Shown piece by piece: positions 2,167 through 4,444 of a stretch of DNA of 4,444 nucleotides; position 1 is the stretch's first letter; each line of letters opens with the position of its first letter. Position numbers and translations under genes: made by a program. The notes under the pieces are model-generated. The model had not been told where the DNA came from, did no database searches, and saw only the letters and a program-made list of their open reading frames with translations. This DNA comes from Escherichia coli (GTDB lineage Bacteria > Pseudomonadota > Gammaproteobacteria > Enterobacterales > Enterobacteriaceae). The stretch is from NCBI RefSeq assembly GCF_003334385.1, contig NZ_QOWN01000085.1, one strand, 5' to 3'.

Positions 2167-3213
2167 GTGCGGGTATTACTTCGACCTGTTCTGGTACCGG
2201 AACTCGGGCTGGTGATCGTTAAGCCGGGCCGTGAATCCATGCCGGTATTCCACAATACCCGGGTACTGGTGGAGCCGGAACCGAAAAGCATGCGTAATCT
2301 GCCGTCCGGAGTCGTTCCTGCCGTTCGACAGCCGCTGGCAGAGGATAAAACATTACTGCCATTTTTCAGCAACGAACGGGTGATTCGTGCTGCGGGTGGC
2401 GCTGGTGCACTGTCTGACTGGTTATTACGTCACGTGAAATCCTGCCAGTGGCCACACGGTGATTATCATCACAGTGAAACCGTCATACATCGTTACGGTA
2501 CCGGCGCGATGGTGTTGTGCTGGCACTGCGACAACCAGCTGCGTGACCAGACTTCCGAATCACTCGGGCAACTTGCTCACCAAAACCTGTCAGCATGGAT
2601 GATTGACGTCATACGCCATGCAATGAATGGCACGCAGGAGCGGGAATTATCGCTGGCTGAATTATCCTGGTGGGCTGCCTGCAATCAGGTGGCGGACGCG
2701 CTACCGGAGGCAGTATTGCGTCGTTCGCTGGGATTACGTGCGGAAAAAATCCGCCCGGTGTACCGCGAAAGCGACATCATACCGGGAGAACCGACCGCCA
2801 CCAGCATACTGAAGCAGCGCACAAAAAATCTTGCGCCGCTGCCTCACGCCCACCAGCAAAACCCGCCACAGGAAAAGACGGTGGTCAGCATTGCTGTTGA
2901 TCCGGAGTCTCCGGAATCTTTAATGAAGCGACCTAAACGTCGCCGTTGGGTAAATGAGAAATATACGCGCTGGGTAAAGACACAGCCGTGTGCGTGTTGT
3001 GGTAAGCCTGCTGACGATCCGCATCACCTGATTGGTCATGGTCAGGGGGGAATGGGGACAAAGGCCCACGATATTTTCACGCTACCGTTGTGCCGGGAGC
3101 ACCACAACGAACTTCATGCAGACCCGCTGGAGTTTGAGAAAAAGTACGGCTCTCAGATTGAGTTAATTTTTCGTTTTCTTGATCACGCCTTTGCGACTGG
3201 CGTGCTCGGGTAA
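2167..3213 (+). CDS. DUF968-type prophage protein (YdfU-like), 348 aa, with a C-terminal HNH-like zinc-finger nuclease motif
   Basis: GTG 2167 is preceded by GGAGG (2157-2161). The C-terminus reads PCACCGKPADDPHHLIGHG...LPLCREHHNELH, a CxxCG...HH...CxxHH pattern resembling HNH nucleases and lambda NinG/Rap. Size and position match YdfU of Qin as I recall it. Confidence 0.8.
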   Translation: MRVLLRPVLVPELGLVIVKPGRESMPVFHNTRVLVEPEPKSMRNLPSGVVPAVRQPLAEDKTLLPFFSNERVIRAAGGAGALSDWLLRHVKSCQWPHGDYHHSETVIHRYGTGAMVLCWHCDNQLRDQTSESLGQLAHQNLSAWMIDVIRHAMNGTQERELSLAELSWWAACNQVADALPEAVLRRSLGLRAEKIRPVYRESDIIPGEPTATSILKQRTKNLAPLPHAHQQNPPQEKTVVSIAVDPESPESLMKRPKRRRWVNEKYTRWVKTQPCACCGKPADDPHHLIGHGQGGMGTKAHDIFTLPLCREHHNELHADPLEFEKKYGSQIELIFRFLDHAFATGVLG

Positions 3214-3225
3214 AAGAGGTGACTG

Positions 3226-3588
3226 ATGCTCATAGATTTGGTTTTACCTTACCCGCCGACGGTGAACACTTACTGGCGACGCCGTGGCAGCACATATTTT
3301 GTATCAAAAGCCGGGGAGCGTTATCGCCGGGCAGTGGTGCTTATTGTTCGCCAGCAGCGACTGAAATTAAGCCTGTCCGGACGGCTGGCAATAAAAATTA
3401 TTGCAGAGCCACCGGATAAGCGTCGTCGTGACCTGGACAATATTCTGAAAGCACCACTGGATGCGCTGACGCACGTGGGGTTGTTAATGGACGATGAGCA
3501 GTTTGATGAAATCAATATTGTACGTGGCCAGCCAGTATCTGGTGGACGGCTGGAGATAAGAATTACAGAGGTGGGTGTGCATGAATAA
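3226..3588 (+). CDS. rusA: RusA-family Holliday junction resolvase, 120 aa
   Basis: The RBS AAGAGG (3214-3219) precedes the ATG at 3226. The protein carries the conserved RusA core (YPPTVNTYW near the N-terminus, acidic catalytic cluster DKRRRDLDNILKAPLDAL...LMDDEQF, C-terminal GGRLEIRITE), which aligns to E. coli RusA from memory. Confidence 0.88.
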   Translation: MLIDLVLPYPPTVNTYWRRRGSTYFVSKAGERYRRAVVLIVRQQRLKLSLSGRLAIKIIAEPPDKRRRDLDNILKAPLDALTHVGLLMDDEQFDEINIVRGQPVSGGRLEIRITEVGVHE

Positions 3589-4270
3589 CCAGTATTTACA
3601 GTTTGTTCGTGAGCAACTCATGATTGCCACTGCAGATCTCAGTGGGTCGACAAAATGCCAGCTGGAAGCCTGGCAGGAAAATGCCCTGTTCGATACAGGG
3701 CGTTACAGACGCAAAAAAATTCGTTACCGCGATGAGGTAACCGGAAAAATGATCACGCGGGATAATCCCCCGATCCAGGGTAAACAATCACTGGCGAAAG
3801 GCTCATCAATTGCGCTGGTCAGTCCTGTTGAGTTTGCAACATCATCGTGGCGGCGTGCCGTTCTGGAACTGGAAGAACATCAGAAGGCGTGGTTGTTGTG
3901 GTGTTATGGCGGAAACATTTGCTGGGAGCATCAGATCGCGATAACGCAGTGGGTGTGGAGTGAATTTAAAACTCAGTCCGGCTCCAGAAAAATTGCAGTG
4001 AAAACGCTGGAGCGTGTGAAGAAGTTGATCTGGCTGGCGGCACAGGATGTCAGAGGATGGGTTACCGGGTGTGAGGTCTACCAGAGACAGGAGCTTGCCA
4101 GACTGTGTGGAGTTAAGCCTGATAACTGGAGCCATAATTATGCGAACTACTGGCGTGAGATGTGCGATATTTTTAAGCGCCTCGATAGAGAATCCTTGAT
4201 TTGCTCCGTGAAAATAAGAGCGCAACAAAAAGCGACCTTTTCACGACGAGATATTGCAAAAGTCAATTAA
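3581..4270 (+). CDS. putative late-gene antiterminator (Q-like, QuuQ-type), 229 aa
   Basis: ATG 3581 follows GAGGTGG (3568-3574) and overlaps the rusA stop by 8 nt; the ORF track's GTG at 3575 is 2 codons upstream. Its position immediately after rusA and before an intergenic promoter-plus-terminator region is the canonical Q location in lambdoid phages. I cannot confirm the family by motif from memory. Confidence 0.5.
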   Translation: MNNQYLQFVREQLMIATADLSGSTKCQLEAWQENALFDTGRYRRKKIRYRDEVTGKMITRDNPPIQGKQSLAKGSSIALVSPVEFATSSWRRAVLELEEHQKAWLLWCYGGNICWEHQIAITQWVWSEFKTQSGSRKIAVKTLERVKKLIWLAAQDVRGWVTGCEVYQRQELARLCGVKPDNWSHNYANYWREMCDIFKRLDRESLICSVKIRAQQKATFSRRDIAKVN

Positions 4271-4282
4271 ATCGCGTATGTT
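4254..4282 (+). promoter_or_regulatory. candidate late promoter (pR'-like): -35 TTGCAA 4254-4259, 17-bp spacer, -10 TATGTT 4277-4282
   Basis: The hexamers were read by eye at the 3' end of the Q-like gene. A transcript from here would meet the terminator at 4332-4359 after about 50-70 nt, resembling the short terminated late leader RNAs on which Q proteins act. Confidence 0.25.
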
Positions 4283-4331
4283 TCGTATAAATCTGATATT
4301 TTGCCGATTTTGTACGTGATGGCAAAGTAAG

Positions 4332-4359
4332 AAAAAACCACCGCCAGGTGGTTTTTTTT
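4332..4359 (+). terminator. intrinsic terminator (tR'-like), possibly bidirectional
   Basis: An A6 run precedes the stem CCACC/GGTGG with loop GCCA (4338-4351), followed by T8 (4352-4359). The flanking A and T runs could extend the stem and would allow termination in both orientations. Confidence 0.75.
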
Positions 4360-4444
4360 ATGTCCGAAAATCGCGTCAGTACAGTAAACGCGCTGGTGGC
4401 GGTGAATACCTGTCTTTCAGCTTGCTGGCTTTTTCGACAAGAGT
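4360..4444 (+). CDS. 5' end of an ORF beginning immediately after the terminator (MSENRVSTVNALVAVNTCLSACWLFRQE..., partial, first late-region gene?)
   Basis: The ATG at 4360 is open to the window end (28 codons). There is no obvious SD and the start abuts the terminator T-tract, so the call is weak. The hydrophobic stretch could fit a holin-type late gene, but that is speculative. Confidence 0.2.
   Translation, partial: MSENRVSTVNALVAVNTCLSACWLFRQE

Follow-up and report, generated by a model that had tools for sequence, protein, structure and literature searches.

A predicted phage 82-type late-gene control region next to the Q antiterminator gene of an Escherichia coli prophage

The region following the antiterminator gene Q in a 4,444-nt stretch of Escherichia coli DNA (contig NZ_QOWN01000085.1 of assembly GCF_003334385.1, referred to here as the window) is, judged from its sequence, very probably a phage 82-type module that controls the late genes of a lambdoid E. 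coli prophage. The family of the Q protein, the presence and conservation of the sequence elements, and the order of the downstream genes are directly observed. A previous sequence-only reading of this DNA had proposed the geometry of Q-dependent antitermination (pR' and tR'), and the layout does match the description of phage 82.

The start site, the pause, the binding of Q and the read-through are inferred from the studied phage 82 system, and the region would work as follows. A sigma70 promoter, pR', which overlaps the last Q codons, would start transcription at approximately A4289. RNA polymerase that has retained sigma70 would be held by the sequence TGaTATTTT-GCC (+6..+17) and would pause at +25/+26. 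Without Q, the transcript would end at the terminator and give an RNA of about 71 nt. Accumulated Q would bind a DNA site in the promoter and load onto the paused complex, which would become terminator-resistant. Transcription would then run through a 66-aa gene and tRNA genes, to the holin and lysozyme genes.

The system is already known: it is the well-studied late control of phage 82, widespread among E. coli prophages. In the E. coli genomes that carry this prophage type only Q is annotated, and to this are now added predicted positions for a late promoter, a pause site and tR'. Its significance beyond annotation is small, and the window adds nothing new on the structure or mechanism of Q82.

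The Q gene and the comparative set

Three neighboring genes lead into the region:

2167-3213, + strand: DUF968/YdfU gene, 348 aa (PHROG 96 'HNH endonuclease', E = 2e-174)
3226-3588, + strand: rusA
3581..4270, + strand: Q antiterminator gene, 229 aa plus stop codon, phage 82 (Q82) family

Its sequence family identifies the 229-aa protein as a phage 82-type Q antiterminator. The phage 82 Q protein has been studied biochemically. An alignment with it (X92588) is gap-free over all 229 residues and shows 66% identity. Profile searches gave a match to Pfam PF06323 (Phage_antiter_Q; residues 4–220, E = 5.3e-82), rather than to an unrelated family, and to PHROG 304, 'anti-termination protein Q-like' (E = 5e-103). 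The proposal that this protein is the late antiterminator, made earlier with no family assignment, is thus borne out. A database search using the 229-aa sequence yielded 2557 homologues, and PF06323 is present in all 120 of the matches listed. PF06323 corresponds to the Q82 family. Of the three Q families, which are unrelated to one another, it is the only one that has no solved structure, with its mechanism unsettled (PMC9388147); for this reason the family is of some interest.

The Q protein of the window differs from 82 Q at one third of its residues, and its DNA specificity could therefore differ. A sequence search of the PDB found no relatives of Q. An AlphaFold model (mean pLDDT 62.8) gave no match below E = 0.5 when compared with the PDB by Foldseek; the top match was to a chain of the AlpA-loaded antitermination complex (TM 0.26–0.32). 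Because the model is of low confidence and there is no significant structural match, no conclusion is drawn on the fold of Q.

The Q start codon (ATG at 3581) overlaps the end of rusA (stop codon at 3586-3588) by 8 nt, which suggests translational coupling of the two genes. The 348-aa DUF968/YdfU-like protein has a Cys/His-rich C-terminus.

For comparison, a scan of viral contigs provided 80 loci with Q proteins 66%–100% identical to that of the window. Together with other fetched loci these form a set of 85 loci, which display 46 distinct intergenic variants. The following are conserved across this set: TTGCAA, a spacing of 17 nt, TA(T/C)(G/A)TT, AAATCTGATAT, and a T at +14.

Predicted late promoter and pause element

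The elements assigned to the promoter and the pause are:

4254..4259, + strand: predicted pR' -35 hexamer TTGCAA, within Q codons 225-227 (I/V-A-K)
4260..4276, + strand: 17-nt spacer, the expected place of a Q-binding element (QBE)
4277..4282, + strand: predicted pR' -10 hexamer TATGTT, ending 7 nt before the predicted start
4289, + strand: predicted transcription start (+1), an A, placed from the 82 pR' layout
4294..4305, + strand: predicted sigma70-dependent pause element, extended -10-like, with TG at +6/+7, TATTTT at +9..+14 and GCC at +15-17
4313..4314, + strand: predicted promoter-proximal pause positions +25/+26 (T, A), the predicted loading point of Q

Promoter-like hexamers had been pointed out at this place from the sequence, and they are present. 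TTGCAA-17-TATGTT matches the consensus at 8/12 positions, which is below the cutoff of the consensus promoter scan, so that it is unlisted there. On the + strand, 11 matches of 8/12 were observed and 8.4 +/- 3.1 are expected by chance. Since matches of this quality occur at chance frequency, the hexamers alone are no evidence of a promoter. Support for a promoter comes from the conservation of the hexamers and from their agreement with the phage 82 pR'.

Conservation of TTGCAA-17-TATGTT extends across the 46 variants, and a sigma70 promoter is predicted here in spite of the 8/12 match. At the -35 place, TTGCAAAA is found in every distinct variant listed, and TA(T/C)(G/A)TT is found 17 nt past it in every full-length variant listed; a view by alignment column is concordant. 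An ATTAAA/ATTGAA motif of the spacer is also conserved among variants. The -35 hexamer lies within the coding sequence of Q, and the third (synonymous) bases of Q codons 225, 226 and 227 are invariant in the 46 distinct genes, whose nucleotide identity goes down to 60%. By comparison, the third base is invariant in 8 of 66 conserved degenerate codons (12%), and in 28 of all 229 codons. The invariant third bases within the -35 hexamer thus indicate a constraint beyond coding.

The pR' of phage 82 has a -10-like pause element with an extended -10 motif and a GCC 'discriminator' at +15-17; there is an AT-rich stretch ahead of the pause, and pauses occur at U+25 and +26 (PMC5001585). In the window, +1 was set to bring GCC to +15-17 and T to +25, in accordance with this description. 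The sequence from A4289 on reads A A A T C TG A TATTTT GCC GATTTTG T A, and counted from A4289 there is an AT-rich run at +18..+24, followed by the T at +25. The same choice of +1 also puts TATGTT at -12..-7. Thus a single start position, A4289, accommodates all four 82 pR' features together with the -10 placement, i.e. five positional constraints. The positions of the pause element, of GCC at +15-17 and of T at +25 agree with the published description (PMC5001585), and the pause itself is predicted.

Among the variants, TGATAT and the T at +14 are invariant, so that the hexamer of the pause element has the form TATnnT. This form keeps the positions that matter most for recognition by sigma70.

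The likeness to 82 pR' is drawn from features described in text and from a proxy phage, rather than from a printed 82 sequence. The proxy is PhiR47_2, which encodes a Q with 97% identity to 82 Q and has the gene order of phage 82, ninE-ybcO-rusA-ylcG-Q. PhiR47_2 and the window are identical from +1 to +17 and have the same layout.

A different kind of comparison is offered by the Stx2 phages Stx2_EH2201 and PhiR5_1. These encode a Q21-family Q of 126 aa (PF06530, E = 7e-53). Their terminator and the DNA beyond it display 86%–89% identity to the window, whereas the 68 nt between the Q stop codon and the terminator are unrelated to those of the window. Because the terminator is common to both Q types and the preceding 68 nt are not, Q and its target travel as a cassette. 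The pairing of each Q type with its own promoter/pause segment is expected if the segment is the Q-specific target.

It might be argued that the hairpin after Q is a mere terminator of the early-right transcript that carries Q, with no promoter in the 60-nt gap and with the late genes served from elsewhere. The weak hexamer match (8/12, at chance frequency) agrees with such an explanation. However, the gap is conserved far better than the synonymous sites of Q, it reproduces four positional features of 82 pR', and it changes with the Q type, whereas the terminator remains in place. A simple early terminator is therefore considered highly improbable, and a phage 82-type late promoter is the preferred reading of the gap.

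Terminator, first late gene and leader RNA

The features located downstream of the predicted start are:

4297..4329, + strand: leader hairpin 1 (+9..+41), in which the pause-element RNA (5' arm) pairs with the downstream GGCAAAGTA
4332..4359, + strand: intrinsic terminator tR', with scan matches on both strands and a supporting fold
4360..4444, + strand: non-coding 5' leader of the first late-operon gene, with 86%–89% identity to Q21-family phages
6909-7106 of the related locus L002, beyond the window, + strand: 66-aa CDS, the first late gene, with its own AAGGGA Shine-Dalgarno sequence, 123 nt past ATG 4360

The terminator tR' consists of an A6 run (4332-4337), a stem CCACC (4338-4342), a loop GCCA, a stem GGTGG (4347-4351) and a T8 run (4352-4359). 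The fold of the 72-nt leader gives -27 kcal/mol (z = -5.7), a value equaled by 0 of 200 shuffles. Leader RNA ended at tR' would be approximately 71 nt long. The Q stop codon is at 4268-4270, i.e. 61 nt from the A-tract and 67 nt from the G+C stem. The strong terminator that had been proposed after Q, at a distance of about 60 nt, is thus found as described.

A G+C-rich hairpin with a T-run ending at +50..+85 is found in 45 of the 46 variants, and the remaining variant (L021) has a mutated copy of the same hairpin. An intrinsic terminator is therefore present between the promoter and the late genes in all 46. The terminator stems of the variants fall into at least seven sequence classes, unrelated or compensated, and the compensatory changes are from A-U to G-C pairs, e.g. 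CCACC/GGTGG vs CCGCC/GGCGG. The retention of the structure while the sequence has been replaced is good evidence that the terminator is functional.

The terminator had also been described as possibly bidirectional. The copy in the window is indeed symmetric (A6/T8), but many relatives have only a short A-run upstream, or none, and there is no convergent gene, so that bidirectionality is not a conserved property. The A6/T8 symmetry is treated as incidental. On the minus strand in the window, ...KDRYSPPPARLLY* runs into the hairpin. In the full-length relative no minus-strand open reading frame of at least 20 aa was found at the terminator, and all neighboring genes are on the + strand; a convergent gene that uses the terminator on the minus strand was therefore rejected.

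The ATG at 4360-4362 directly abuts the last T of the T-run, and its open reading frame is open to the end of the window. The sequence-only reading had noted this open reading frame at the first base past the T-tract, correctly, and had taken it for a downstream gene whose start is buried at the terminator. The latter claim fails, as the open reading frame is not conserved. There is no ATG at this place in 20 of the 46 variants. In the other 26, the open reading frame in the window runs off its end, and lengths of 8, 10, 16, 20, 25, 27, 42, 54, 56, 75, 88, 106 and 298 aa are found elsewhere; the 298-aa case is unrelated. Both an ATG of the 4360 type and the 66-aa gene are carried by 19 distinct leaders, with a spacing of 122, 123 or 124 nt between them. 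The two are out of frame in 8 of these 19 leaders, and 5 have an in-frame stop; relatives with Q proteins 97%–99% identical are among those with a frame shift or a stop. Only in this lineage is the ATG 4360 open reading frame in frame with the 66-aa gene, and in a full-length relative the two together give 106 aa.

The real start of the first late gene is the ATG 123 nt downstream of ATG 4360. The stretch from 4360 on is well conserved in nucleotides though the open reading frame is not, which identifies it as a non-coding leader. That ATG 4360 is instead the true start of a 106-aa protein, with a ribosome-binding region masked by the terminator hairpin, is scarcely credible. It is true that, in this lineage, no stop or shift of frame separates ATG 4360 from the 66-aa gene, and that the PHROG 331 profile spans the N-terminal extension; this coverage shows that phage annotations often call the long form. 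However, ATG 4360 is preceded by a run of T with no Shine-Dalgarno sequence, the RefSeq annotation begins the 66-aa gene at the internal ATG with its AAGGGA Shine-Dalgarno, and the losses, frame shifts and stops listed above do not suit a coding sequence. The long open reading frame that some phage annotations show after the terminator is thus a spurious extension of the 66-aa gene. As to the earlier suggestion that translation downstream requires read-through, the general dependence on read-through stands, and the start at the terminator does not.

The 66-aa protein is annotated as a 'TrmB family transcriptional regulator' and belongs to PHROG 331, of unknown function. By this annotation, the first product of the late operon would be a DNA-binding protein. 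Between tR' and the 66-aa gene, about 123 nt of well conserved, non-coding DNA (4360-4444 of the window, continuing to L002:6908) are common to Q82-type and Q21-type phages with 86%–89% identity, and the mosaic joint is at the 5' edge of the terminator.

Upstream of tR', hairpin 1 is the one feature of the region that may be new. Most Q82-type modules have a segment at +33..+41 that can pair with the RNA of the pause element (+9..+17), and the resulting hairpin abuts the terminator. In the window its fold gives -10.3 kcal/mol (z = -2.9). A hairpin at the +9..+41 place is found in most variants. Divergent clades keep it in place with other sequences (TTTGCC/GGCAAA, GTCG/CGAC, TGCCA/TGGCA). It is missing in three variant types (L044/L054/L067), where the terminator is placed directly after the pause site. 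With the register fixed, 83% of cells are paired; changes on both sides occur in only 2 pairs, and slid controls gave similar covariation scores, a pattern that shows no clear covariation.

Hairpin 1 could tune the efficiency of termination at tR', or make the 71-nt RNA a stable, StxS-like regulator in lysogens; such roles are considered unlikely. The late promoters of lambda, 21, phi80, 82 and P22 have all been reported to give short terminated RNAs, and a regulatory role is known for one RNA of this kind, StxS, which is made from the pR'-tR' of Stx phages (PMC7547250). With this precedent, which includes phage 82, the pR'-tR' RNA of about 71 nt might also be a trans-acting small RNA that is constitutive in lysogens. 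In shape the leader is typical of small RNAs, with an A-rich linker that joins a 5' hairpin to a terminator hairpin and its U-tail, and +1..+41 is strongly conserved. However, the conservation of +1..+26 is already accounted for by the pause and Q-loading function, the L044-type variants have no hairpin 1 and a different, shorter leader, and StxS belongs to a different Q family and comes from a 258-nt precursor. An Rfam search of the region gave no family at its gathering score, and hence no similarity to a described small RNA. A trans-acting, StxS-like function of the leader is thus given a low probability.

An attenuator coupled to translation, of the amino-acid-operon type, has a probability close to nil. 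It was brought up by a sub-threshold Rfam match to Phe_leader (28.3 bits vs a gathering score of 55), but this match rests on the generic 'hairpin plus terminator' shape. The sole leader open reading frame, ATG-GCA-AAG-TAA (4319-4330), has no Shine-Dalgarno sequence and no run of regulatory codons. The lack of a leader peptide effectively refutes this explanation. The sub-threshold Rfam matches as a group (Phe_leader, STnc370, isrK, OrzO-P, RNAI) were rejected as 'hairpin plus terminator' matches. The preferred reading of the leader is that of a pause and Q-loading segment ended by tR'.

Genomic context and comparison with known systems

A query of 870 nt, made up of the Q open reading frame and the region after it, shows 99.4% identity to a prophage in E. 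coli NCTC9112. Of 5426 complete E. coli genomes, 2440 have a match to this query and 424 contain it almost in full. In the NCTC9112 prophage, the genes that follow on the same strand are the 66-aa gene, an HTH gene, three tRNA genes, a large DUF6645 gene, and the holin and lysozyme genes, such that the lysis genes lie about 5 kb downstream. Lysis/late genes downstream on the same strand are also found in phage records. The context is the standard right arm of a lambdoid prophage.

Several other loci were seen in the upstream part of the window. A hok/sok-type type I toxin-antitoxin locus is at 1395-1719 on the + strand (Rfam sok, 117.6 bits at 1395-1569), with a 51-aa Hok-like open reading frame (1564-1719, PHROG 251) and a mok-like overlapping open reading frame from 1507. 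It is followed by a rem-like open reading frame, also on the + strand. An isrK-like match at 1728-1809, which falls between hok and the rem-like open reading frame, is sub-threshold (27.8 bits vs a gathering score of 50) and ends in a hairpin at 1788-1805 that resembles a terminator. The 1728-1809 segment precedes the ydfU-rusA-Q block and may serve it as a read-through-controlled terminator. Two small hydrophobic open reading frames, at 1095-1178 (27 aa) and 1213-1318 (~35 aa), may encode small membrane peptides; the first overlaps the stop codon of a 266-aa open reading frame (298-1098) in ATGA.

The hokD-rem-ydfU order recurs in the K-12 prophage Qin, which has no rusA and whose Q gene, ydfT, encodes 250 aa. 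The annotation of Qin shows no RNA gene after its Q.

StxS of Stx1/Stx2a phages resembles the predicted leader RNA: it too is short, and it arises directly after Q from a late promoter that is constitutively active and constitutively terminated. It differs in that it is found in phages with a 144-aa Q, and in that a 258-nt precursor is processed to 74 nt. StxS and the leader of the window have no sequence relation.

In phage lambda (Q-lambda, PF03589), the late promoter is constitutive and contains a QBE, the polymerase makes a sigma70-dependent pause close to the promoter, and a short RNA (6S RNA) is terminated, with Q-dependent read-through to the lysis genes. The control predicted for the region in the window follows the same logic. 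The two Q families are unrelated, however, and the lambda pauses are at +16/+17 as compared with +25/+26. The lambda leader ends at +193, in contrast to about 71 nt in the window.

The Q21 modules (PF06530; Stx2_EH2201 and PhiR5_1) occupy the same genome position and share a homologous terminator, leader and 66-aa gene with the window. They differ in their 126-aa Q protein of PF06530 and in the 68 nt before the terminator, which are unrelated.

The closest likeness is to phage 82. There are several differences. One third of the Q residues differ, as do several bases in the -35/-10 spacer, the expected QBE region. Phage 82 has orf45/ylcG between rus and Q, and the window does not. The terminator in the window is a different hairpin, which ends at about +71, as compared with about +85 in the phage 82 proxy. 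In both, however, Q is a 229-aa protein of the same Pfam family (PF06323, 66% identity) encoded after rusA, the promoter (a predicted one in the window) overlaps the end of Q, and a terminator is located within 100 nt. An extended -10-like pause element at +6..+14, GCC at +15-17 and U at +25 are likewise common to the phage 82 pR' and, as predicted from A4289, to the region in the window.
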